Source: an uncultured archaeon (lineage in GTDB: Archaea > Asgardarchaeota > Lokiarchaeia > Sigyniarchaeales > SOKP01). From it: a stretch of DNA of 16,470 nucleotides. The notes below the pieces were generated by a model. That model ran no database searches. It worked only from the letters and a program-made list of their open reading frames with translations, and was not told the DNA's origin. Below are positions 624 to 14,572 of the stretch, piece after piece. The stretch is taken from assembly GCA_964583985.1 (NCBI GenBank), contig CAZOYD010000069.1, forward strand, positions 1 to 16,470. Direction: 5' to 3'. A program made the translations under genes and the position numbers. Each line of letters starts with the position of its first letter. Position 1 is the first letter of the stretch.

Positions 624-3600
624 TTAGGATGTTAGCTTAATTTTTCTCTTAAGTTTCGATTTTATGAGTAGAAAAGAGATTCCTAGTATTGTTAGAAGGA
701 TCAATGCTGAATCGTATCCCGGGATACCTGGTATTGCAACGGTTATCTCAACACAATTTGAGAGAGTATCTCCATTATTATTGTGTGCTACAACAATAAA
801 ATAATACGTTCCATCCACGTATCCACTCAATGCCCAAGTCAAATCGGTGATTTCATTTGCCAAGAGGGTAACACTTCCATCTATCACTGTAATAAAACTT
901 GAAGAACGATATACCGAGTAGTTATTTGCCTCAGATGCCGTCGTCCACGAGAGTTCAAAGATTCCATTATTATCAGGATTTCCCGCATTTGATGATAAGG
1001 TGAAATCTCCCGGTGGTGGTAGTTCTACGTTAATTTCAATGCAATTGGAAAGGGTATCGCCAGCATCATTGTGTGCTACTACAATAAAGTAATACGTTCC
1101 ATCATTGCATCCACTTAAGGCTAAGGTCAAATCGGTGATTTCATTTGCCAAGAGGGTAACACTTCCATCAATCACTGTAATGTAACTAGAAGAACGATAT
1201 ACCGAGTAATTATTTGCATAAGACGACGTAGTCCACGTGAGATCGAAGGCTCCATCATCATCAGGGGTTCCCGCATTTGATGATAAGGTGAAATTTCCTG
1301 GTGGTACATCAATGATGGTTAACATCGCGTTGGTATCGACAAAATTGAAGGCATAATTCATTGCTCCTGCGTCGTAAATAAATGTACCATTTAAGAGAAT
1401 TCCCGTACTCTGCTCATACCACACGATACCTCCTGGTTGAGTTAAATCTTCGAGTTCCCACACTCCAACGAGACCAAATCCGGGTAAGTCATACACTAAT
1501 TCTCTTGCGACATAAAAATCATGATCTCCTTCTCCATCAACAGCTATGGGGATCGTATCATAAAGAGATACATTCGTAAATATCCACCCCAGAGTATGAG
1601 CACCATCTCCAAACCCTGACCCACCTGACATTAATCTTGTTAAAGCATTCACGACCCATGTAGTTGACATATGAGATCCCATATATTCCTGCCCAAAAGA
1701 TTCATAATATAAATCACCTGTGAAAAGAGCATATGTAAAATTTGTATTAAAATAATAACCCATCCCTGAAACGGAATGTTTTATATACAATCCATCAAAT
1801 AATTGAGTTTCAACGACATTCACAATCTTAGTTTCTCTATTATTATCTATGGATGATTCAAGAGGTACAGGAAGAGCAAGAGCTGTAAAATTATAGGCCC
1901 TGTATTCGGTAGGTGTCCAGTCATATTCGATGGTTTGGTCCATTCCAACAGCGAGAGTAGGTACTGTAAGAGAATCAACTATAACATCATCGAGGTATAG
2001 ATACAATTCTACATCGACTTCAGGATTTAAACCTATATTTCGAACTGTAGCATTGATTTTATAGCTTGTATCGATTTCAAAACCAACGATAGGAAAGTCA
2101 AGATCCACTTCTAAATCATGATCCGGTGTAATTTCTACAACCACGGTTATACAGTTTGAAAGAGTATATCCATACTCATTGTTTGCAGTTACAATAAAGT
2201 AGTATGTTCCTTCTGTATAGGTACTTAGCACCAAGCTCAAGTCGGTAATTTCATCAGCTAAAACAGTCAAGCTTCCATTTATCTCAGTAATATAACTTGA
2301 ATGTTGATACACGGAATAATTATCTGCTCCATCAGCCAAAGTCCAGTTGAGAGCAAATACACCATCATCATCAGGACTCCCAGCATCAGATGATAATGTA
2401 AGGGAGCCTGGAGTTGCACGATAGATCGGATATGCACGGAATGAGCCCATTGCATTGTAAGGAACTCCTTGAATCTCATTCAGATCAACGTAGATTATTT
2501 TAGGGTGATAGAGAGGAGCATGGAATTGATTTCGTGCCAAGTATCCTTGAATGTTTTGATAGATAATGTTTCTGGCTAATTCATCAGTTTCTGCCAAAGC
2601 TGCGACTATCAAAGCATTTAAGTGTGCATCATCAACTTGAGCTGAGTTAGCACTGGATGCTGGGTTAAATATTGGGTTAATCATATTGTATGGATCAAGA
2701 TAATCTGGACTCCATCCAATAATGAATATACCTAAGTGATCATGATCAGCAAATAAGTAATTAAGGAATTCTTGATAAGTTACTCCATCATCCACCACAT
2801 TAATACCGATGAGCTTAAACCATTCCGTAACTGCAACTTGAAAGTCTTCTCTAAATGTATTTCCAAAATTATAGGTGTGCGGAACTGTCAGGAATGGAGA
2901 GCTTCCTTCTGCTACGGCAATCCATTGTGCATCTGTGGTGAATCCAACACCAAATCCCATCGACTGCATGTATGATCGTGCTAAGCTAAGGTCATAAGCA
3001 AGAGGGACGATAGATGCGTTGAATGAAGCACCAAAACCGGGTGAAATAGCCGAGACAGCTCTAATAGAATCCCCTAATCTTAAAACATCAATTACATAAG
3101 AATAGTTAATTGCATTAGCCATTGCCAATCTCCAAGTTTCATTATACTTTTCATTGTTGAATCCTAGATAATAATATATTAGACTTGGTCTACCAGTGTC
3201 CTCAGTGAATCTCTTCACCTTGATATTGGGATCCGCATCGTATAGAGGAATGTATATAGACGCAATCATATCTTCTAATATATCAATTTCATAAGCGAGC
3301 ATCGCATTATGAGCAGTAGTAAAATCATTAAAAATTACAAATACCATATCTTCAAAATACGCTGGTCCTTTCCAGTAATTATCCCATCGACTAAATTTTA
3401 CTTCTACCCCTGGATTAAAATAATCATAAGTAAATGGTCCTGTTCCTATTGGATGACCTGTTGTGAGGTCAATGAAGGTTGTTGCTTCAGCCGCATGAGC
3501 GGTTGGAGAAATCATGCCCGCGTTAATATAAGATAGAGTGCTTAAGAAAGGAGAATAAGGAGCGTTGAGAGTAATTGTGAGGTTAGAATTTCCAACTGTC

Positions 3601-4136
3601 GCGACGTTATTAATTATGGGAGTTACTCCATCAGGGAGCATCCACAAGGATTGAGTTTGAGCGACTGTACCAGTATTAGTACCAGTACAATTTGTAAGGT
3701 ATAATAACCTATCAAGATTCCATTTTGCTGCTGTTGCATTAAATGGAGTTCCATCATGGAAAAGAATACCTTCCCTAAGATGTATTGAAAGATGGGTACT
3801 ATCTATCCAATGAAAGGAATGAGCAAGTTGGTTAATTCGAGGTAAATTTTCATCTGTTAAATTGTAAAAAAACAGGGTTTCAACCACTTGTTCTAATACA
3901 TCATTTGACCCACTATCCCACGCCTCAACAAGCTCTAAAGTAAATGGACCCGAACTTTTTCCCACTTTGAGAGTCAAAGGATCAGCTCCAATACTGGAGG
4001 TTAAGAAGGTTACTGTTTGATCCGTAATACGAGTAGTTTTTTCAGTATTTAAACGCATTGATGTGAGGTTATAAATATTGAAACATAACAAAAAAATCAT
4101 TAAAAATATAAATAACTTAGTAAATTTATCTTTCAT
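624..4136 (-). CDS. Cell-surface ABC-type family 5 (OppA/DppA-like) solute-binding protein fused to three ~96-aa Ig/FN3-like repeats, a CARDB-like domain and a C-terminal IPGY sorting/membrane anchor
   Basis: N-terminal signal peptide. SBP_bac_5 motifs LREGILFHDGTPFNATA, PIGTGPF, YLGFN and IGWSPDYLDP. CARDB-like INATVRNIG...NN. C-terminus IPGYDSALILLTILGISFLLIKSKLKRK. Confidence 0.9.
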   Translation of the reverse strand: MKDKFTKLFIFLMIFLLCFNIYNLTSMRLNTEKTTRITDQTVTFLTSSIGADPLTLKVGKSSGPFTLELVEAWDSGSNDVLEQVVETLFFYNLTDENLPRINQLAHSFHWIDSTHLSIHLREGILFHDGTPFNATAAKWNLDRLLYLTNCTGTNTGTVAQTQSLWMLPDGVTPIINNVATVGNSNLTITLNAPYSPFLSTLSYINAGMISPTAHAAEATTFIDLTTGHPIGTGPFTYDYFNPGVEVKFSRWDNYWKGPAYFEDMVFVIFNDFTTAHNAMLAYEIDILEDMIASIYIPLYDADPNIKVKRFTEDTGRPSLIYYYLGFNNEKYNETWRLAMANAINYSYVIDVLRLGDSIRAVSAISPGFGASFNASIVPLAYDLSLARSYMQSMGFGVGFTTDAQWIAVAEGSSPFLTVPHTYNFGNTFREDFQVAVTEWFKLIGINVVDDGVTYQEFLNYLFADHDHLGIFIIGWSPDYLDPYNMINPIFNPASSANSAQVDDAHLNALIVAALAETDELARNIIYQNIQGYLARNQFHAPLYHPKIIYVDLNEIQGVPYNAMGSFRAYPIYRATPGSLTLSSDAGSPDDDGVFALNWTLADGADNYSVYQHSSYITEINGSLTVLADEITDLSLVLSTYTEGTYYFIVTANNEYGYTLSNCITVVVEITPDHDLEVDLDFPIVGFEIDTSYKINATVRNIGLNPEVDVELYLYLDDVIVDSLTVPTLAVGMDQTIEYDWTPTEYRAYNFTALALPVPLESSIDNNRETKIVNVVETQLFDGLYIKHSVSGMGYYFNTNFTYALFTGDLYYESFGQEYMGSHMSTTWVVNALTRLMSGGSGFGDGAHTLGWIFTNVSLYDTIPIAVDGEGDHDFYVARELVYDLPGFGLVGVWELEDLTQPGGIVWYEQSTGILLNGTFIYDAGAMNYAFNFVDTNAMLTIIDVPPGNFTLSSNAGTPDDDGAFDLTWTTSSYANNYSVYRSSSYITVIDGSVTLLANEITDLTLALSGCNDGTYYFIVVAHNDAGDTLSNCIEINVELPPPGDFTLSSNAGNPDNNGIFELSWTTASEANNYSVYRSSSFITVIDGSVTLLANEITDLTWALSGYVDGTYYFIVVAHNNNGDTLSNCVEITVAIPGIPGYDSALILLTILGISFLLIKSKLKRKIKLTS
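740..1305 (-). repeat. Tandem intragenic 288-bp (96-aa) repeat units 2 and 3 of the SBP
   Basis: Identical stretch GTCAAATCGGTGATTTCATTTGCCAAGAGGGTAACACTTCCATC at about 838 and 1126 (offset 288). Protein repeat PPG.FTLSSNAG.PD..G.F.L.WT....A.NYSVY...GTYYFIVVAHN..GDTLSNC. Confidence 0.9.
2130..2412 (-). repeat. Intragenic repeat unit 1, a more diverged copy of the 96-aa domain
   Basis: PGSLTLSSDAGSPDDDGVFALNWT...NYSVY...LADEITDL...GTYYFIVTANN...TLSNCI aligns with units 2 and 3. Confidence 0.85.
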
Positions 4137-4682: not shown

Positions 4683-5537
4683 TTAGGAAGGGAATTTGAT
4701 TTTTTCTAAAGCAATTTCAAGATCCTTTTCCTTTTTAAGTAGTACTCCTAAAAATGGTATGCCTTGCTTCAATTCTTCAATTGTTATACCACTTTTTAAT
4801 AGTACAGATATCCAATCCAAAATTTCAGAAGTTGATGGCATTTTTCTTATTTTAGTGATAGCCCTGAGAGCATAGAAGTGTTTTAAGCATTGATCTAATA
4901 AATTTTGCTTTAAATTAGGATAATGGAGATTACAAATTTCAGTCATGAACTCTTTTGATGGGAATTCAATCCAGTGAAATACACATCTACGTAAAAAAGC
5001 ATCTGGAAGTTCTTTTTCATTATTTGAAGTAATGATAACGATAGGACGCGTTTTTGCTTTAATTGTCTCTTTAGTTTCTTTTACATAAAATTCCATCACA
5101 TCTAACTCTTGTAAAAGATCGTTGGGAAACTCAATATCTGCTTTATCTACCTCATCAATAAGAAGAACGACTTGCTCATCAGAATCAAAAGCTTCTCCTA
5201 AAGGTCCGAGAGTGATGTAATCTTTTACATTATCAACGTTTCGATCTTCACTCCCAAATCGACTATCATTTAATCTTTGGACTGTATCGTACATGTAACA
5301 CCCATCTATTGCTTCTGTGGTGCTCTTTATATTCCATGTAATAAGTTTTTTTCCCAAGGATTCGGCAATTGCATGAGATAAAAGCGTTTTTCCAGTACCG
5401 GGTTCACCTTTAACTAATAAAGGTCGAGCTAATGCAATAGAAACATTAACAATATTTCGAAGTTGAGGATCGGCGATGTATTTAATCCTATCTGTATTTA
5501 CATCGCCTTTAAACTTATTAAACCCATCATTATTCAT
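4683..5537 (-). CDS. MoxR-family AAA+ ATPase (CoxD/AAA_5-like)
   Basis: Walker A GEPGTGKT, Walker B VLLIDEVDKAD, FPNDLL, and IITSNNEKELPDAFLRRC. Confidence 0.92.
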   Translation of the reverse strand: MNNDGFNKFKGDVNTDRIKYIADPQLRNIVNVSIALARPLLVKGEPGTGKTLLSHAIAESLGKKLITWNIKSTTEAIDGCYMYDTVQRLNDSRFGSEDRNVDNVKDYITLGPLGEAFDSDEQVVLLIDEVDKADIEFPNDLLQELDVMEFYVKETKETIKAKTRPIVIITSNNEKELPDAFLRRCVFHWIEFPSKEFMTEICNLHYPNLKQNLLDQCLKHFYALRAITKIRKMPSTSEILDWISVLLKSGITIEELKQGIPFLGVLLKKEKDLEIALEKIKFPS

Positions 5538-6585: not shown

Positions 6586-6960
6586 ATGACAAATGAAGAT
6601 GAGATGTTAGGAGAATTAAAAAAAATTCGAGAATTACTGACCCCGCCACCAGCACCACCTAAAGAAAAACCAAAAAACTTGGCAATGGAATTCTTGGATT
6701 TCATAAAAAAATATAAAGTTCTGGGTCTTGCCTCAGCATTTATAATCGGTCTTGCTGTAAATGCACTAATCCTTTCCTTAGCTCAAGATATAATAACCCC
6801 AATAATCGGACTCTTTATACCAGGATTTACTACTATTGCAGATTTCAAACTTGGTGTATTTGGGATCGGAAATTTCATAGCAGCATTCATTAATTTTATA
6901 ATAATAGCGTTTATAGTGTTCCTTATCATAAAATTAGCGTCAAGGATAGGACTTGATTAA
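6586..6960 (+). CDS. mscL: Large-conductance mechanosensitive channel MscL family protein
   Basis: EFLDFIKKYKVLGLASAFIIGLAVNALILSLAQDIITPII (S1/TM1) and GNFIAAFINFIIIAFIVFLIIK (TM2). Confidence 0.9.
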   Translation: MTNEDEMLGELKKIRELLTPPPAPPKEKPKNLAMEFLDFIKKYKVLGLASAFIIGLAVNALILSLAQDIITPIIGLFIPGFTTIADFKLGVFGIGNFIAAFINFIIIAFIVFLIIKLASRIGLD

Positions 6961-7153: not shown

Positions 7154-8782
7154 TCATAAAGAATCATCTAAGATCTCAATTTGAAAGATTTTGGAGTCGT
7201 TCCAAGTTTCACAAGTTCTATAGATCCCCCACAGATAACTTCCATCCCAAGACATGCCTACACATCCTCCTGCTACGTCATATATCCTTCCTACTATATC
7301 CCCCGTCTTTGTCCAGGCAATAAGCCTGTTTCCTGCACTTGACCAGAAATGAGTGCCATTCCAAGTGAATGGACTATACAAGTCTATCCCAATCAAGTTG
7401 GTTGTCCCGTGGATAGTCCCATTTTTGTACAATTCAAATAATTTAGACCCTGCTCTATTGGTAATGTAAAGATATGTACCATCAGTTGCTAAACCTTGAC
7501 GTCCACCAGTTTCTTGTTCGGGAATCGGAAAGGAGTCATGAATGGTCACGGCAGTATCATTAACTGAAAATTTAACGATTTTTAAAAGCGAATGATCTTG
7601 AGCCCAAAAATACTCTCCATCATAACATAATCCTCTTGGTCCGAATAATTGGGAAGTATCGATTGAATATTCCGTATAATTTGAGGTTATGGGATCTATT
7701 TTGAGTAATTTACCCGTCTCTAATTTCCAAATATACCCATTAGCATATTCTAATGCCCAACCAAACCCTAAACCTTGACCTATTCTTCTATTTACACGTC
7801 TAGTTTCATCAATGGGATCATACACATATATGAATTGATCTTCGGGATCTCCTGGAGTATAACCTAAATTACTATGTTTGATATCTTGAAAACCAACGTC
7901 GGGTATGGGAACAAAATCTTCACCAAAATCATTATTAACACTAATAAGAGTGCTTGAATTTTGGAGTGCAAGTATGGCAGTAGCGTTATCGAAACCATCA
8001 AATTTGTTCCAAGTAACAGTTGCATTTGCATTACCAGCAACTTGCACCGCCGTTAAATCGGTATTGTTATAATTATAAAAGTAATTACCTTCAAGTGTTA
8101 CGTTAGAATCGAAAACTATGAATGGAAAATGACCCCCAGCAAAGATGTTATTGCGAATTTCTACATCATAATTATATTGCTCAAGAGCTATTTCATGATA
8201 CCCATTTTGATAGAGCAAGTTATATTCAATAAGGGGAGCCGATCTTTCCATATAGATCCCCTCGCTATTTATCCATCTCACAATTGAATGGCTTATGTTT
8301 GCTTTGGAATCAAATTGAGCAATTCCCAAATTGGCATATTCCACAATAACATAATTGAAAAATGAAGTATTAGTTCTATACAATTCTATTCCCCCCCAAT
8401 CACCATTGATTGGATTATCGGAATCAGAAGTAAACCATATTTGTTTCGTTGATGTACCATTAGCAATTAACGTACCCTCGACTACAGCAAACCCTATGTA
8501 TTGCAAGGATTTATAATCTCGACATGGCTTGAAATTAATTTGAGTCCCTGGTAGTATCGTTAAGGTAACCCCTTTCGGTACCAATATGCTTTCATTTACA
8601 AAAATGTTACCAGTCCACGTTTCATCTTGAGTAACGGTCCCTCCCTTGAAAATGGGGTTAATATCGGTATTTTTATCTTCCGGAAATATAAGAAAGTAAA
8701 CCAAAATAGAAGTGCTCACAATAATGCCAATAAATATTATGGATATCAATATTTTTTTACTAAATGGTAATCTAAACAACAT
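7154..8782 (-). CDS. Membrane-anchored extracellular protein with a right-handed parallel beta-helix and a C-terminal beta-propeller
   Basis: N-terminal TM. VPKGVTLTILPGT...GTLIANGT....IWFTS...WGGI beta-helix entry motif and Asn-rich repeats. Propeller repeats GLCYDGEYFW, GLATDGTYLY, FTWNGTHFW and GMSWDGSYLW. Confidence 0.8.
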   Translation of the reverse strand: MLFRLPFSKKILISIIFIGIIVSTSILVYFLIFPEDKNTDINPIFKGGTVTQDETWTGNIFVNESILVPKGVTLTILPGTQINFKPCRDYKSLQYIGFAVVEGTLIANGTSTKQIWFTSDSDNPINGDWGGIELYRTNTSFFNYVIVEYANLGIAQFDSKANISHSIVRWINSEGIYMERSAPLIEYNLLYQNGYHEIALEQYNYDVEIRNNIFAGGHFPFIVFDSNVTLEGNYFYNYNNTDLTAVQVAGNANATVTWNKFDGFDNATAILALQNSSTLISVNNDFGEDFVPIPDVGFQDIKHSNLGYTPGDPEDQFIYVYDPIDETRRVNRRIGQGLGFGWALEYANGYIWKLETGKLLKIDPITSNYTEYSIDTSQLFGPRGLCYDGEYFWAQDHSLLKIVKFSVNDTAVTIHDSFPIPEQETGGRQGLATDGTYLYITNRAGSKLFELYKNGTIHGTTNLIGIDLYSPFTWNGTHFWSSAGNRLIAWTKTGDIVGRIYDVAGGCVGMSWDGSYLWGIYRTCETWNDSKIFQIEILDDSL

Positions 8783-8954
8783 GATCCCTCTTTAAGCCTT
8801 AAAAAAGTTTAGATGGAGATTAATTAATGATAGTTTATCTTCAATTTGTATTATATGCTATATAATTTGATTTTTTTTATAATTTGATATTTTTCTTTAT
8901 GTAATAGTTAATTTAGAATTCAGTATTTTCTCTAAATCGTTTTTTATAAAAAGA

Positions 8955-8997
8955 TTTCCATCAAATAATTTTCATTAAAGAACAGAAAGATTTAATA
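8955..8997 (+). promoter_or_regulatory. Putative operator-like motif TTTCCATCAAATAATTTTCAT followed by BRE/TATA-like AGAAAGATTTAATA upstream of the radical SAM operon
   Basis: Near match to TTTCCATCAATTTGTTTCAT (12469) and TTTCCATCAATTATTTTCAT (13822) upstream of the GTPases. Confidence 0.45.
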
Positions 8998-9045
8998 ATT
9001 TACCAAATAACTTATAATTTAACAAATAGAATCCAAATTAAAACC

Positions 9046-10149
9046 ATGCCGAACATTACGTCTCTAATATCTCAAAGAATTAAACCATCTTGTGCGGTAT
9101 GGGAAATCACGCTAAAATGTAATAGTAATTGCATCCATTGTGGATCAAAGGCGGGAAAATCTCGAATTGATGAACTCAATACCGAAGAATCTTTAAATTT
9201 AGTAAGAGAGATCCGTGATTGTGGTTATAAAGGAATCGCTTTGATGGGAGGAGAACCATTAATTAGGAGCGATTGGTATGATATTGCGAGAGAAATTAAA
9301 AAAAATAAGTTAGAATTATCAATTGTTACAAATGGACTGACTTTACTTGATAACATCAAAGAAATAAAAAGTCTAAAAGCTGACTGTGTATCGCTAAGTT
9401 TGGATGGTGGATCGGCTAAAGTCCACGATTATCTCAGAGGCATACCAGGGGCATTTGACAAAACATTAAATGCAATAACCCGGTTAAAAGAAGAAAAAAT
9501 ACCAGTCAGTGTTATTACAGCGGTAAGTAAAACTAATCTAAATGAATTAAATAAGATAAAAAAAATATTATTAGATCGAAATATTGCGTGGCAAATCCAG
9601 ATGGCAATCCCTATTGGACGCTTTCCAAGAGAATTAACGATTTCGAGGGAAGAATTTTACACTGTAGCATTATTCATTGCTATAAATGTCAAAAAGTATA
9701 CGTATAAACGATTACCAGTTATTGGGGCCCATTGTCTCGGTCATTTTTCAAGATTTATGCCAAATTTGGGGTTGGATCCATGGGTGGGATGCCAAGCTGG
9801 GTTATCAGTTTTAGGTATTCAGAGTAATGGAAACATAAAAGGATGTTTAACACTTCCTGATGGATTTATCGAAGGAAATATTAGAACGCAGAGCTTAAAA
9901 ACGATTTTGGAAAAGATAAGGTTAAAAAAAATAAAATTAAAAGGTTATTGCACAGATTGTGATATGGCAAGAATATGTCGGGGAGGATGTTTGGGATCAG
10001 CTTTAGCATTAAATGAATTTGATGAACCTTATTGTCTAAGAGCGATTGAAAATAATTTGTTTTCCTCGAAGCAGTTACCAATTAAAGGGAAATTGGATTC
10101 CACAATTTCAATATTAAAAAATATGTATCATAACTTAATATTCAAATAA
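9046..10149 (+). CDS. Radical SAM/SPASM domain protein (putative peptide or protein maturase)
   Basis: CNSNCIHC (CxxxCxxC), GGEP, VTNG and VSLSLDG. SPASM cysteines CQAG...GNIKGC...CTDCDMARICRGGC...YC. Confidence 0.93.
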   Translation: MPNITSLISQRIKPSCAVWEITLKCNSNCIHCGSKAGKSRIDELNTEESLNLVREIRDCGYKGIALMGGEPLIRSDWYDIAREIKKNKLELSIVTNGLTLLDNIKEIKSLKADCVSLSLDGGSAKVHDYLRGIPGAFDKTLNAITRLKEEKIPVSVITAVSKTNLNELNKIKKILLDRNIAWQIQMAIPIGRFPRELTISREEFYTVALFIAINVKKYTYKRLPVIGAHCLGHFSRFMPNLGLDPWVGCQAGLSVLGIQSNGNIKGCLTLPDGFIEGNIRTQSLKTILEKIRLKKIKLKGYCTDCDMARICRGGCLGSALALNEFDEPYCLRAIENNLFSSKQLPIKGKLDSTISILKNMYHNLIFK

Positions 10150-10183
10150 ATTAACTATAAAATTTAATGGAGATATCTTTGAA

Positions 10184-10432
10184 ATGTTTGAAAATATTAT
10201 TCAATTGAATAAAATCGGTAAAGAATTAGGTTTAAGTAAGAAAGAAATTAATAAAGTACTTTTATTTGACAATAGCAGGCATCCCTCATTATATAAAATC
10301 CTGATGATAATAATATTTGTTTTTGTGGGAGTTATCGTTATTATCTTAGGAATTGAAGCTTCAAGACATATTTATCCTGCTGGAACATTATATTCAACGG
10401 TAAAAATAAAGGATTTTAAAAGTAAAAAATAA
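10184..10432 (+). CDS. Small single-TM protein, paralog 1 (candidate radical SAM substrate/precursor)
   Basis: 82 aa, GGAG upstream. Shares IGKELGLSKKE and YxxGTxYSTVKxKD with the next two ORFs. Confidence 0.85.
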   Translation: MFENIIQLNKIGKELGLSKKEINKVLLFDNSRHPSLYKILMIIIFVFVGVIVIILGIEASRHIYPAGTLYSTVKIKDFKSKK

Positions 10433-10467
10433 GTGATAAATTTTAAATTGGGGTGAATATTGAGAAG

Positions 10468-10752
10468 ATGATGAAAGATATAATTCTGCTGTTTACGATC
10501 GGTAAAGAGTTGGGATTAAGCAAAAAAGAGATTAATAAATTACTGTTATTTGACAATAGTAAACATGCTTTATTATACACAAGTCTATTGAGAATAGCAT
10601 TTATCTTTTTTGGCGTCTTGATAATAATATTAGGAATAGGAGCCTCTAGAAATACTTATGCAGCGGGAACTTACTATTCTACTGTAAAAATAAAGGATTA
10701 TCACAAAAAAAAATGTTTAAATTTCAATAAGGAAGGAATATTGAGAAAATGA
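10468..10752 (+). CDS. Small single-TM protein, paralog 2 (start revised from GTG 10453 to ATG 10468; 12-aa C-terminal extension)
   Basis: From ATG 10468 it aligns without gaps to paralogs 1 and 3. The upstream GAATATTGAGAARATGATGAAAGAT is shared with paralog 3. Confidence 0.85.
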   Translation: MMKDIILLFTIGKELGLSKKEINKLLLFDNSKHALLYTSLLRIAFIFFGVLIIILGIGASRNTYAAGTYYSTVKIKDYHKKKCLNFNKEGILRK

Positions 10753-10997
10753 TGAAAGATTTGATCCAGCTATATGAAATCGGGAAAGAATTAGGATTAT
10801 CGAAAAAAGAAATGAACACGGTTTTATTCCATAATAATAATAAGAATAGAGTCATATTTCTGATTATTTTCATTATACTTTTCTCAAGTGTAGGTTATCT
10901 TTTGGTGTTCATTATTGAAACGGCGATATCTAACACCTATCCTAGTGGAACAAGATATTCAACTGTAAAATTAAAAGATTATTATAGAAAAAAATGA
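10749..10997 (+). CDS. Small single-TM protein, paralog 3
   Basis: 82 aa with the same motifs. ATGA overlaps with both neighbouring genes. Confidence 0.85.
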   Translation: MMKDLIQLYEIGKELGLSKKEMNTVLFHNNNKNRVIFLIIFIILFSSVGYLLVFIIETAISNTYPSGTRYSTVKLKDYYRKK

Positions 10998-12292
10998 AAC
11001 TGAATATTGGTTGCGGAAAAAAATACGATCCCAATTATTGTAATATTGATTTATATGAAGATTTAGTGGCTGATAGGTTGATGTCAGCGCTTAACCTTGA
11101 ATTTGATGACAATTCGTGTGATGAAATAAAAGCGATCCATGTGATTGAACACTTAAATTTTTTTGAAGCTATTTATGCTCTCAGTGATTTTTTTAGGGTA
11201 CTGGAACCTAATGGAAAATTAATCCTTGAAACACCTGATCTTGAGAAAGCGTGCCAGCATTATTTAAAAGCAAATGAAGAACAGAAAAAAGAGATATTAG
11301 GTTGGTTATATGGAATACCTCATAAAGGTTTACAGCATAAATTATGTTTTCCCCCGTTCCTCTTAATCGAATTATTAGAAAATACAGGATTCGAAAATAT
11401 TACAACCTCTAATTTTTATAACGTTGAGGATATTCCCTCAGTTCGATTTGAATGTTATAAATGTAGGAATGGTAATGAATTTGAAGTGTTTCAAATTATT
11501 TCTAAACTCCGTAAGGAGCTCCGCTTAAACAATCAAATAGATTTTACTGATTCTTTCATTACTAAAGAGCAAGAAGATCTTGTATCTTTCATAGCATTAA
11601 AGCTACTTGGGTTTAAAAAAAAACAAAAAAAAGAGTTAAAACAGGAACTTTTTGTCGATTTGTTGTTTAAATGGCCTGAAGTCGTTAGCACCTTATTATC
11701 AGTTATCCAAAATGAGATTTATATCTCTCAAGTGGAATACTTACACATTAAAGAAATATCGGATCTTTTGGTCAAATATAATATCGTAAATATACTTTTT
11801 AATTCAATAACTAAAGGACCTTTAAATCCCGGATTGCAAAGAATTGTCTTTTTTTCAGTAGAATCGTTTGCGAGGAAATTAATAGAAAATCTTTTGAATT
11901 CTGTTGAAAATCGGGAAAATCTCATTGAAAACCTTAAAATGCTACATGATTCTCCTAAAGATTTTAATAATAAAATATTCTCAGCCAACTTAATTGAGAG
12001 AAAAGCGTTAGACTTTTATTATCTCGGAATTAAATCTTATCATCAAAAAAATTATAATTATGCTCATAATTTATTTTTGCGAGCGATTAAATTAAATCGA
12101 GATAATTATTTATTTTTCTGGAATTTAAGTAAAACATTAGCAAGATTAAAATCATATAATCAATCAGAAAAAATATACAAGAAGACATTACGTCTAATAA
12201 AAATGACTGACATTAAAAATAAACAAGATTTAAAATCGCAAATCCAACAGGAATTAAATTGGATCAAAAAACGGATGGAAAATAAGCCTTAA
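10994..12292 (+). CDS. Class I SAM-dependent methyltransferase-like domain (Methyltransf_11-like) fused to a helical middle region and C-terminal TPR repeats
   Basis: KLNIGCG motif I, NIDL, DEIKAIHVIEHL and RVLEPNGKLILETPD. TPR-like FYYLGIKSYHQKNYNYAHNLFLRAIKLN and FFWNLSKTLARLKSYNQSEKIYKKTL. Confidence 0.85.
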   Translation: MKLNIGCGKKYDPNYCNIDLYEDLVADRLMSALNLEFDDNSCDEIKAIHVIEHLNFFEAIYALSDFFRVLEPNGKLILETPDLEKACQHYLKANEEQKKEILGWLYGIPHKGLQHKLCFPPFLLIELLENTGFENITTSNFYNVEDIPSVRFECYKCRNGNEFEVFQIISKLRKELRLNNQIDFTDSFITKEQEDLVSFIALKLLGFKKKQKKELKQELFVDLLFKWPEVVSTLLSVIQNEIYISQVEYLHIKEISDLLVKYNIVNILFNSITKGPLNPGLQRIVFFSVESFARKLIENLLNSVENRENLIENLKMLHDSPKDFNNKIFSANLIERKALDFYYLGIKSYHQKNYNYAHNLFLRAIKLNRDNYLFFWNLSKTLARLKSYNQSEKIYKKTLRLIKMTDIKNKQDLKSQIQQELNWIKKRMENKP

Positions 12293-12468
12293 GTTCAACT
12301 CTCTCCTGGAAAGACAGCACTGAAGATTTATTTCCTTATTGAATTTTTAATGAGATGATCCAACCTTGAAATTTCCTCTATAATATTTTAGTCCAATTCT
12401 AATCTAATATTTCACGTAATTCATAGGATAAAAAAGAGATTGACTAAAATTATTAGTTGAAATCCCAT

Positions 12469-12531
12469 TTTCCATCAATTTGTTTCATGTAAATTAGTTA
12501 ATGATAAGTTATTTGGAGAAAGTTTAAATAT
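12469..12531 (+). promoter_or_regulatory. Conserved 63-bp upstream element, copy 1, ending in BRE/TATA-like GAGAAAGTTTAAATA
   Basis: 59/63 identical to 13822-13884 by manual alignment. It ends about 150 nt upstream of GTPase 1. Confidence 0.75.
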
Positions 12532-12682
12532 CAAAAGTTTTTTATTATTTTTGCTCAATGAGCTATTTAAAACGAAGGTTATAGAGATAAATTCCTATAT
12601 TGAGCATTAGTTGTGTGGCTGAAAACTTATAGTTTCAAGCATATCAAGTTAATAATAGGAAAAAATGTTAAATTAGATTAAA

Positions 12683-13204
12683 ATGTATGACGCGATTTTT
12701 AAAACTGTCATTTTTGGGGACGCAGGTTCTGGTAAGACAACTCTAACTAAACGTTTTGTTACCGATTTCTTTATACCTGATTCTCACATGACTATAGGAG
12801 TGGAATTTGAAACTAAAATTGTCGAAATCGATGATATACGAGTTAAATTAATGATATGGGATTTTGGTGGTGAAGAACGATTTCGATTTATCTTTCCCCA
12901 ATATATCCAAGGAGCCATGGGAGGAATTTTAATGTGTGATATCACAGATTATTCTTCTTTTTCTCATACTATTGATTGGTTATCAGTCATGAATGGCGAA
13001 AAAGAGCGTTTCCCTATCTTATTACTCGGAGGTAAAAAGGATTTAAATGAATCCCGAGATATCTCTTTTAATGAGGGAAAACAACTTGCAAACTCAATAG
13101 GTCTAAATAAATATATTGAATGTTCCAGCAAAACCGGTGAGAATGTCGAAATATCGTTTGAAGTGTTAACGAGAATAATGGTTAACAAAATGAGAGAAGA
13201 GTGA
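12683..13204 (+). CDS. Rab/Ras-superfamily small GTPase, paralog 1
   Basis: G1 GDAGSGKT, G2 TIGVEF, G3 WDFGGEERF, G4 variant GGKKD, G5 CSSK. No C-terminal prenylation cysteines. Confidence 0.95.
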   Translation: MYDAIFKTVIFGDAGSGKTTLTKRFVTDFFIPDSHMTIGVEFETKIVEIDDIRVKLMIWDFGGEERFRFIFPQYIQGAMGGILMCDITDYSSFSHTIDWLSVMNGEKERFPILLLGGKKDLNESRDISFNEGKQLANSIGLNKYIECSSKTGENVEISFEVLTRIMVNKMREE

Positions 13205-13662: not shown

Positions 13663-13821
13663 ATGCATATTCACGTATTCTTTTTAGTCTCTCAATTCTC
13701 TGTATATCAAAATAGTGCATAATAATACACCCAAGGATGCAAAATTAAACACTCGAAGTAAAATAGTTTAATTTTGAAGCATAAAAATGAAATATACTAA
13801 ATGAATTGATTTGATTATCAC

Positions 13822-13884
13822 TTTCCATCAATTATTTTCATGTAAATTAGTTAATGATAAATTATTTAGAGAAAGTTTAAATAT
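13822..13884 (+). promoter_or_regulatory. Conserved 63-bp upstream element, copy 2
   Basis: 59/63 identical to 12469-12531. It ends about 170 nt upstream of GTPase 2. Confidence 0.75.
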
Positions 13885-14053
13885 TTGTAGCTATTTTTCC
13901 TTTTCAAACTATCATCCCATCCTAAAAAAATTCTTAGTTATATAATTGCAAGACTAAGATTAAATTTTTTCTTAAGCATAAATTGTGAGCTGAAATGTTA
14001 TATTTTTAAATATTTAAGATGAAACCCCAGAAAAAATAGTAAATTAGATTAAA

Positions 14054-14572
14054 ATGTATGACTTGATTTTTAAAATCGTTATTTGCGGAGACGCGGGTTG
14101 TGGTAAAACAACTTTAAATAAGCGTTTTATTAAAGATTTATTTCTCCCCGATTCTCACATGACTATAGGGGTAGAATTTGAAACTAAAATCATCGAAGTC
14201 GATGAAAAACGCGTTAATCTCATGATCTGGGATTTTGGTGGTGAAGAACGATTTCGAACATTATTTCCTCAATATATCCAAGGAGCCATGGGAGGAATTT
14301 TAATGTATGATATTACGGATTATTCCTCATTTTCCCATATTAGTGATTGGCTCTCAATTTTACAGGAAAACAAAAAAAATATCCCCATCTTATTACTAGG
14401 TGGTAAATTAGATTTAGAACAATCTAGAGCAATTTCTTTTAAAGAAGCTAAACGACTTGCGGAATCAATGGGCTTGAATAACATCATGGAATGTTCCAGT
14501 AAAACCGGTGAAAATGTGGAAAGTTCATTTAAAGAATTAACGAGAATGATTATCCATAATTTGAAGAAATGA
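14054..14572 (+). CDS. Rab/Ras-superfamily small GTPase, paralog 2 (about 71% aa identical to paralog 1 by hand count)
   Basis: G1 GDAGCGKT, G2 TIGVEF, G3 WDFGGEERF, G4 variant GGKLD, G5 CSSK. Confidence 0.95.
   Translation: MYDLIFKIVICGDAGCGKTTLNKRFIKDLFLPDSHMTIGVEFETKIIEVDEKRVNLMIWDFGGEERFRTLFPQYIQGAMGGILMYDITDYSSFSHISDWLSILQENKKNIPILLLGGKLDLEQSRAISFKEAKRLAESMGLNNIMECSSKTGENVESSFKELTRMIIHNLKK

Follow-up and report, generated by a model that had tools for sequence, protein, structure and literature searches.

A conserved radical SAM/SPASM gene cassette of Asgard archaea with small tyrosine-motif membrane proteins as candidate substrates

Spliceases are radical S-adenosylmethionine (SAM) enzymes with a SPASM domain that act at X-Y-G sites (PMC11414181; PMC10849128). 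Spliceotide systems include the ternary PlpX/PcpX system with PlpY and the binary systems RhaX/RhaA, RcsX and RasX (PMC11414181, PMC11626197, PMC10849128). The binary systems lack a protein with a recognition element (RRE) for peptides that are made on ribosomes and modified after translation (RiPPs) and use the leader helix as activator (PMC11414181; PMC10849128), and spliceases accept whole proteins as substrates (PMC11414181, PMC10849128, PMC10533398, PMC11626197). Here we describe a locus on contig CAZOYD010000069.1 (assembly GCA_964583985.1) of an uncultured archaeon of the Asgard class Lokiarchaeia, analyzed over a stretch of 16,470 nucleotides (the window), in which the gene for a radical SAM/SPASM enzyme is followed by genes for three small membrane proteins, pep1 to pep3, and for a SAM-dependent methyltransferase (MTase) fused to tetratricopeptide repeats (TPR). 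These genes probably form a conserved three-component cassette for post-translational modification, with the three small proteins as the substrates.

No known prokaryotes are more closely related to eukaryotes than the Asgard archaea, and next to nothing is known of their peptide or protein modification chemistry. No paper in the literature searched links Asgard or Lokiarchaeal genomes to a system of this kind, and a prior bioinformatic listing is possible: the splicease-type catalogue of Scott et al. (2022, Chem) reportedly includes archaeal genomes (PMC11626197).

Gene linkage and the two enzymes

The linkage of the radical SAM enzyme, the small proteins and the MTase-TPR protein is real. 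Among the 20 same-genus loci fetched around peptide matches, 18 keep the order radical SAM enzyme, one to three peptides, MTase-TPR, with sequence identities to the window of 59–91% for the radical SAM enzyme and 44–88% for MTase-TPR. The exceptions are one locus with the order peptide, MTase-TPR, radical SAM enzyme, peptide (L036) and one that holds only the radical SAM gene and a peptide fragment (L041). No cassette gene is missing from these loci except at contig ends, and an orthologue of the radical SAM enzyme adjoins the peptides in 19 of them, a contig end accounting for the remaining one. Within the genus the three components come or go as a set: at least one of them is present in 23 of its 35 genomes, and all three are absent from the other 12, some of which are 98–100% complete, so that the cassette is accessory. 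Of 399 genomes of the phylum, 106 (in 19 of 85 genera) encode full-length MTase-TPR homologues and 82 match a broader short-peptide profile; both are found in 78 genomes, the peptide alone in 4, MTase-TPR alone in 28 and neither in 289. Peptide homologues are thus not mostly enzyme-free (78 of the 82 peptide genomes have MTase-TPR), an outcome that had been named beforehand as one that would speak against a modification system. At least two of the peptide-only genomes have their match at a contig start (G236, G350), and the matches of the remaining two, G203 (E 9.8e-4) and G252 (E 5e-8), are weak. Of the 28 genomes with MTase-TPR only, 26 belong to families that carry another form of the small protein, either a long one with three transmembrane (TM) helices or a hydrophilic one, both of which retain the Y-P and X-Y-G/N-V motifs. 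In all, 47 loci with a match to MTase-TPR or the peptide were retrieved inside and outside the genus, and 39 of them have the radical SAM gene within about 1.5 kb of MTase-TPR; six of the other eight are cut by a contig end (L040, L047, L070, L111, L113, L114) and two are exceptions (L041, L056). Small proteins with the tyrosine motif described below adjoin the cassette in every context examined except L045, L047 and L056.

The initial annotation took the locus for an Asgard RiPP-like cluster, and it does occur in Asgard archaea without being confined to them. Judging by the record titles returned in a search with a 12-row MTase-TPR alignment, the hosts are Promethearchaeota/Promethearchaeia, genomes labelled Hod-, Hermod-, Thor-, Odin-, Hel- and Heimdallarchaeota, and MK-D1. 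A number of Thermoplasmatota bins and SM23-78 (Euryarchaeota) also carry full cassettes with long-form substrates, and partial ones were found, at contig ends, in an Aenigmatarchaeota bin and in a Dehalococcoidia-labelled bin, in which MTase-TPR and a tyrosine-motif protein precede the contig edge (L113). An Elusimicrobia-labelled bin carries the radical SAM enzyme, MTase-TPR and a 110-residue short-form protein (L138, 2821–5538). These two occurrences under bacterial labels reflect either horizontal transfer or mis-binning.

The first gene of the cassette had been annotated as encoding a full SPASM enzyme, and its cysteines bear this out. The CX3CX2C motif of the radical SAM cluster is formed by C25, C29 and C32, and these residues, together with a set of eight further cysteines (C230, C249, C267, C302, C305, C311, C315 and C330), are invariant in 13 orthologues. 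Measured against the SPASM pattern C-x9-15-G-x4-C ... C-x2-C-x5-C-x3-C ... C, which implies two auxiliary clusters, the seven cysteines fall into place as C249...G262-x4-C267, C302-x2-C305-x5-C311-x3-C315 and C330, with C230 in addition. The Pfam models Radical_SAM (PF04055, 92.8 bits, cut-off 29.5) and SPASM (PF13186, 26.1 bits, cut-off 21.5) both match. As had also been noted, no PqqD or RRE domain is present on the enzyme: there is neither an N-terminal extension nor a PqqD-like match, and the cluster motif, which begins at residue 25, leaves no space for an RRE in front of it.

The best NCBIfam matches of the enzyme are peptide maturases, namely TIGR04103 (Nif11-class maturase 3, 200.9 bits), which we take to be of the PlpX type although no paper was found to confirm this, and TIGR03913 (170.3 bits), with TIGR04133, TIGR04053 and AhbD (153.2 bits) close behind. 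The models of WgkB, StsB, DynA and SkfB all match as well. SkfB is the closest solved relative (PDB 6efn, E 7.8e-16) and PqqE is among the other solved relatives; the similarity to the archaeal tetraether synthase Tes (E 9.3e-7) covers the generic radical SAM core only. The scores of AhbD and of NirJ2 (126.6 bits) are what might be cited for reading it as an AhbD/NirJ-type heme or cofactor enzyme with small open reading frames (ORFs) beside it by coincidence. Both lie far below their cut-offs of 500 and below the peptide-maturase models, NirJ itself gives 110.9 bits (cut-off 515.45), no heme-pathway genes are found nearby, and the adjacency to tyrosine-motif proteins extends over Asgard families, Thermoplasmatota and a bacterial bin, so that we regard such an identity as very improbable indeed. 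Sorting with cofactor enzymes had likewise been named beforehand as an adverse outcome; the enzyme does not do so, given that peptide-maturase models outscore AhbD and that tyrosine-motif proteins are adjacent in nearly all contexts.

As had been proposed, the last gene encodes a class I MTase with TPR-like repeats behind it; Pfam recognizes the MTase part and the predicted fold shows both. Methyltransf_23 (PF13489) matches with 29.4 bits (cut-off 27) and Methyltransf_11 (PF08241) with 24.8 bits (cut-off 21.2), and the columns of the G-x-G motif (G6, G8), D19 and E52-H53 are invariant in 33 homologues. In the AlphaFold2 model based on 33 homologues (predicted local distance difference test, pLDDT, 91.9; predicted template modelling score, pTM, 0.88), the Rossmann domain (residues 1–158) superposes on 3sm3 over 150 residues with a Z-score of 14.8 and a root-mean-square deviation (rmsd) of 3.2 Å. 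Behind it follow about 270 helical residues, of which 335–429 match the idealized TPR structure 1na3 (Z 15.3, rmsd 1.9 Å, 86 residues), a Z-score only slightly over the helical-repeat background. At the sequence level the TPR stays under the cut-off (PF07719, 18.5 bits versus 27). A Foldseek search with the model returned generic class I methyltransferases only, which gave no functional clue, and the helical region 160–335 was barely covered by the structure searches. One MTase-TPR gene of the same genus (L039, 1355–2659; G035:C25) has one in-frame TAA and may be a pseudogene or an assembly error.

The small proteins and their relatives

The three small proteins are paralogues, as annotated initially, pep2 and pep3 being 67% and 48% identical to pep1. 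Most of their 33 invariant columns fall into two blocks, one at the N-terminus and one, with the tyrosines, at the C-terminus, and the DNA of the three genes, upstream spacers included, aligns as a tandem triplication. Each protein consists of the block φ-G-K-E-L-G-L-S-K-K-E-φ (φ, hydrophobic), a variable hydrophobic helix and the tail Y-P/A-x-G-T-X-Y-S-T-V-K-φ-K-D-Y/F, and none has a cysteine in its conserved part. One correction applies to pep2: its usual stop codon is lost in an A-run (10700–10752), which adds 12 residues, making 94, and creates the overlap with pep3, whereas the orthologues of relatives stop at the usual position. Through this read-on, the spacer and ribosome-binding stretch before pep3 have become coding.

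A profile of the three peptides matched 280 proteins, nearly all of 81–85 residues, in a collection of 5.8 billion proteins (marine-sediment and Promethearchaeota sources), and pep1 to pep3 are therefore real genes rather than chance ORFs. Family members share an amphipathic, leader-like motif, φ-G-K-x-L-G-L-x-K-K-E-φ, which is followed by the variable TM helix and the core Y-P-x-G-T-X-Y-S/G ... D-F. In 31 diverse members (pep1 numbering), G12 and Y70 are invariant and G16, L17, Y64, G67 and D77 are conserved in at least 90%. The residue X before the invariant tyrosine is the one freely varying position in an otherwise rigid core (L 34, R 14, F 8, K 5, Y 5, E 5, M 2, A 2), and the tyrosine itself is followed by S, G, A or N. 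The sites in the window read L-Y-S, Y-Y-S and R-Y-S; paralogue lineages keep these classes of X in related genomes, where pep3-like copies carry Lys or Arg. Diverged extra copies often stand directly after the MTase gene or a few kb away in the same-genus loci. In several genomes of the genus, extra diverged peptides of 101–106 residues with a longer basic tail (L030, 4067–5569; L032, 7318–7626; L033, 7707–9197) lie between a MoxR-like AAA gene and MscL, 1–3 kb upstream of the cassette.

In other Asgard families, the enzyme pair is adjoined by a long form of 120–185 residues, for example in metagenome-assembled genomes of the Heimdall and Hod types and in Promethearchaeum syntrophicum MK-D1 (145/156 residues; NZ_CP042905.2, at about 1.576 Mb). 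Its layout is a related N-terminal motif, K-L-x-E-φ-G-x-x-L-x-V-x-x-x-D-φ, a first TM helix, Y-P(Y/F), a TM hairpin whose connecting loop is basic and, at the C-terminus, X-Y-G/N-V-Y/F/W, and in 29 such proteins only Y-P and the first tyrosine of the terminal motif are invariant. The AlphaFold2 model of the MK-D1 protein (pLDDT 80.6) has three TM helices and places the Y-P loop and the tail on the same face of the membrane, which fits the short form, where both motifs are contiguous. A hydrophilic form is encoded in a Helarchaeota-labelled genome (L043) by three tandem ORFs of 46–65 codons between MTase-TPR and the radical SAM gene; these proteins have no TM helix, and all that they retain is G-Y-P-F and P-P-x-Y-G-V-Y.

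When 1.84 billion representative proteins were searched with a profile, 173 members were recovered at E ≤0.001. Soluble multi-core relatives from metagenomes have one leader motif followed by two to five tandem 15-residue copies of Y-K-A-G-T-X-Y-G-T-V-S-P-K-D-L, and others have two or three repeated leader-plus-core modules. One leader with tandem cores is the classical design of a modified-peptide precursor, into which a structural or anchoring role is very hard to fit. No form of the family, whether short, long, hydrophilic or multi-core, matches a Pfam or NCBIfam model. In this respect the initial description of an undescribed precursor family stands; it has to be qualified in that the spliceotide systems of bacteria are functionally closely analogous.

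The genomic neighbourhood of a multi-core gene could be read for P0168 only, the genes for P0196, P0189, P0240 and P0242/P0220 being on contigs shorter than 1.3 kb. P0240 (L151, 179–403) translates only with TGA read as Trp, so the organism behind its contig may use a reassigned stop codon. The P0168 gene, with five cores, lies 146 bp upstream of a radical SAM/SPASM gene whose product is 47% identical to that of the window (L148, 1–7000, an archaeal metagenome contig by its NAC gene) and scores 220 bits with TIGR04103 (cut-off 725). A 51-residue ORF with one further core motif follows, and the contig also carries a second SPASM enzyme, a B12-binding radical SAM enzyme, an alpha/beta hydrolase with S9/S33 peptidase matches and a 442-residue protein of no known family. 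The B12-binding enzyme may stand in for the MTase. The 442-residue protein was considered as a diverged MTase-TPR and rejected (hhalign probability 0.2).

In a maximum-likelihood tree of 46 radical SAM enzymes, those with long and hydrophilic substrates form one clade and those with short and multi-core substrates another. The substrate label needs far fewer changes on this tree than shuffled labels do, and relatedness alone contributes to the difference. The substrate status proposed in the initial annotation thus gains strong indirect support from the multi-core relatives, from the position of a multi-core gene directly 5' of the gene for an orthologous enzyme and from enzyme clades that track the type of substrate.

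A proposed route of modification and its chemistry

In the route that we propose, the cytoplasmic radical SAM enzyme would dock on the leader-like helix, alone or with the help of the TPR domain of the MTase, and would carry out radical chemistry at the invariant tyrosine motif, the fused class I MTase would methylate the same tail, and the modified protein would then be inserted with its N-terminus inside, leaving the core on the outside of the membrane, where it would stay anchored or be released. As the only conserved cytoplasmic element, and one that the soluble multi-core forms share, the N-terminal motif is probably what the enzyme docks on. This topology is predicted from the positive-inside rule, with 2.47 Lys and Arg in the 12 residues before the TM helix and 0.90 after it (68 sequences), and the basic loop between the second and third TM helices of the long form agrees with it. 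Neither enzyme carries a signal sequence, and the radical SAM enzyme needs three Fe-S clusters, so that modification would have to take place in the cytoplasm and, with the core outside, before membrane insertion. A predicted complex of the radical SAM enzyme with pep1 reached an interface score (ipSAE) of 0.57, with 0.00 for the best control, contacts that agree to at least 84% between runs and a partner pLDDT of at least 67. Of 80 solved complexes, 58 attained the mark applied to ipSAE, as did 2 of 110 mismatched pairs; among those that attained it, values of 0.60 or less were given by only seven of the 80 and by both mismatches.

The cassette has typical traits of RiPP systems, in that precursor genes are adjacent to and co-occur with a maturase gene and the precursors have a bipartite leader/core structure with a multiplied core. 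Several observations nevertheless weigh against this interpretation or narrow it. The radical SAM enzyme falls far under the curated cut-off of every named NCBIfam family, including the 725 bits of TIGR04103. The core is predicted to lie outside the cell, so a cytoplasmic Fe-S enzyme must act before insertion. The complex prediction gives weak support for binding and does not indicate which part of the peptide would be bound. Unlike most RiPP clusters, neither the window nor the conserved neighbourhood in relatives has a protease or an exporter, L148 alone offering a hydrolase of the S9/S33 type; this is therefore not a classical cluster for a secreted RiPP. The absence of MTase-TPR from L148 means that the MTase is not obligatory in every branch, and the window peptides have Y-S in place of the Y-G of characterized splice sites. 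What is shown is which genes the cassette holds, their motifs and co-occurrence, and the relatives that join a leader to several cores; the role of the peptides as substrates, the sequence of steps, the chemistry and what becomes of the product are inferred.

Because the small proteins contain TM helices and are accompanied by no protease or exporter, they might instead be membrane anchors or regulators of the two enzymes, which would act on a lipid or another membrane component. The distant similarity of the radical SAM core to Tes would suit such a role, as would the predicted cytoplasmic location of the N-terminal motif, and a positive binding prediction is expected of an anchor too. Yet the hydrophilic trio of L043 and the soluble multi-core proteins have tyrosine motifs and no TM helix, the tandem repetition of cores makes no sense for an anchor, the tyrosine motifs of an inserted protein face away from the enzymes, and the Tes similarity is that of a generic radical SAM core; for these reasons an anchoring role seems improbable to us.

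With the small proteins taken as substrates, the chemistry can be narrowed less far. We tentatively favour a reaction like that of spliceases, in which a tyramine unit would be excised at X-Tyr-(Ser/Gly), because the residue before the invariant tyrosine varies, no RRE is present and the best-matching family points the same way, an argument by analogy that leaves this option doubtful when taken singly. Relatives have X-Y-G sites (other Asgard families, soluble multi-core proteins and the long form) as well as X-Y-N and X-Y-A. About equally plausible, and held with the same reserve, is that the radical SAM enzyme makes a tyrosine crosslink in these substrates, of the C-C cyclophane or ether type known from StrB, WgkB, triceptides or darobactin, which the MTase would then tailor. 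Such a link could run from Y64 or Y70 to an adjacent side chain, or from Y-P to the distal X-Y-G-V motif. The fixed spacing Y-x-x-G-x-x-Y, which is kept in every 15-residue repeat unit, speaks for it, as do the TM hairpin that returns Y-P and Y-G-V of the long form to the same face of the membrane, as if they acted together, and the matches to WgkB, StsB, DynA and SkfB, the last being the best solved relative. The crosslinker models, however, score below TIGR04103 and TIGR03913, the hypervariable position immediately before an invariant tyrosine is the pattern expected of a splice site, and thioether classes are excluded by the lack of cysteine in the conserved part of the peptides.

Chemistry of the cofactor type has little probability in our estimate. 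Here the tyrosine motif would be the precursor of a peptide-derived redox cofactor similar to pyrroloquinoline quinone (PQQ) or mycofactocin, and the small proteins would be sacrificial precursors or membrane carriers. The core is conserved, as it is in cofactor precursors, the Y-G-V-Y end of the long form resembles the G-V-Y of mycofactocin, PqqE is one of the solved relatives, and the MftC and PqqE models match the enzyme family (MftC with 112 bits for the window enzyme, which is below the cut-off of 265 and so not a member; 151 bits to MftC and 98 to PqqE for the L148 orthologue). The tyrosine is never C-terminal, however, with 2–20 residues after it, the cassette contains no MftB, PqqD, peptidase or MftD- or PqqB/C-like genes and is accessory, being absent from 12 of 35 genomes of the genus, and up to five tandem cores per protein together with a variable X argue for a peptide product.

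Should tyramine excision be confirmed, backbone beta-amino-acid formation would be extended to archaea and to membrane proteins, and new pairs of leader and tag would become available for protein engineering. An ambitious version of this, which we consider unlikely on balance, is that the products are the first spliceotide-like ones in archaea and the first on membrane proteins, forming a panel of ketoamide warheads with Leu, aromatic and Lys/Arg residues that is displayed on the Asgard cell surface or released, with MTase-TPR as a new partner; ketoamides differing at X would have different protease specificities. If the chemistry is not splicing, it would be a new tyrosine-directed radical modification with a well-defined recognition unit of 15 residues. 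The cassette is compact; roughly one in four of the Asgard genomes searched has it, it also occurs in Thermoplasmatota, and its presence in the cultured MK-D1 makes the function directly testable.

The locus in the window and its comparison with described systems

The five ORFs of the window lie head to tail on the plus strand from 9046 to 12292, at exactly the coordinates first annotated (Table 1). The two reported gaps of about 35 nt are 34 nt, from the end of the radical SAM gene at 10149 to the start of pep1 at 10184, and 35 nt, from the end of pep1 at 10432 to the ATG of pep2 at 10468; the two ATGA overlaps are at 10749–10752 and 10994–10997. An alternative open GTG is located upstream of the pep2 ATG, at 10453, and each peptide start is preceded at about 12–15 nt by a purine-rich stretch (GGAG/GGGG/AGGAAGG).

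Table 1. Features of the cassette in the window
Feature	Position	Strand	Basis
Radical SAM/SPASM enzyme, 367 residues, without RRE domain; predicted tyrosine-motif maturase	9046..10149	+	Pfam, NCBIfam, orthologue alignment
pep1, 82 residues; leader-like motif ~8–26, TM helix ~35–58, core Y64-P-x-G67-T-L-Y70-S...D77-F78; X = Leu	10184..10432	+	
pep1 codons Y64 to Y70, Y-P-A-G-T-L-Y core; predicted modification site	10373..10393	+	Direct reading and conservation
pep2, 94 residues; architecture as pep1, X = Tyr, C-terminal extension of 12 residues	10468..10752	+	
pep3, 82 residues; architecture as pep1, X = Arg	10749..10997	+	
Class I SAM-dependent MTase (1–~158) fused to an all-helical domain (161–426) with TPR repeats at the end (~335–430), 432 residues	10994..12292	+	

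A scan of 8700–12800 for promoters and terminators of the sigma-70 type gave the same counts as shuffled sequence, and that consensus does not apply to archaeal promoters. Insertion as a mobile element was considered and rejected, flanking direct repeats sought around 8.5–14.2 kb being limited to short AT-rich matches and a GTPase duplication. The latter consists of tandem duplicates of a Ras-family small GTPase gene (12683–13204 and 14054–14572), and the non-coding DNA 5' of each is duplicated as well (12425–13204 and 13778–14572; 127 nt at 77% identity, and 212 nt at 79% across the gene starts). A 17-nt motif 5' of the second GTPase gene (13822) recurs 5' of the radical SAM gene (8955). Upstream of the cassette, the minus strand encodes a protein of 1170 residues with SBP_bac_5 and CARDB domains (624–4136), a 25%-identical relative of which directly follows MTase-TPR in a distant Asgard cassette (G045, L042, 2982–5072), perhaps by coincidence or as a loose association. 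A MoxR-like AAA gene (4683–5537) and MscL (6586–6960) are further neighbours in the window.

Among well-known SPASM enzymes, PqqE joins Glu and Tyr of PqqA, and MftC acts on the C-terminal G-V-Y of MftA. The mycofactocin and PQQ systems resemble the cassette in that a SPASM enzyme serves a conserved tyrosine core, and the Y-G-V-Y of the long form recalls the C-terminus of MftA. They differ in that here the tyrosine is not C-terminal, RRE chaperone and downstream peptidase or oxidase genes are lacking, the cassette is accessory and its substrates are multi-copy or multi-core. TIGR03913 (GDL-motif) enzymes, WgkB/StrB and SkfB share the domain architecture, an adjacent substrate encoded by a small ORF and similar scores, whereas the present system has no cysteine, no RRE, another precursor family with other motifs, and an enzyme that reaches no curated cut-off. 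SPASM enzymes that modify proteins, such as anSME, QhpD and a methanogen enzyme that installs thioethers in proteins (PMC13692751), are likewise of about 370 residues without an RRE and act on proteins, folded or in the membrane, whose N-terminal part is kept; their targets are Cys or Ser, in contrast to the conserved tyrosine and coupled MTase found here.

The spliceotide systems come closest. They too rely on a radical SAM/SPASM enzyme and on an invariant tyrosine with a variable residue before it and a small one after it, several sites per precursor are possible, and the natural splice tag A-A-x-Y-G-V-V (PMC10533398) resembles the X-Y-G-V-Y of the long form. Neither the binary systems nor the cassette has an RRE, and the leader helix of the former has its counterpart in the leader-like motif of the latter. 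On the other hand, the radical SAM enzyme lies outside TIGR04103 (200.9 versus 725 bits), the window has X-Y-S at its sites, membrane proteins with a leader of a new kind take the place of Nif11 or NHLP precursors, the hosts are archaeal, and the MTase-TPR protein is an obligatory partner in most lineages. Set beside these relatives, the locus is a probable radical SAM/SPASM system of peptide or protein maturation with a new substrate family, a new MTase-TPR partner and an archaeal membrane-protein setting.

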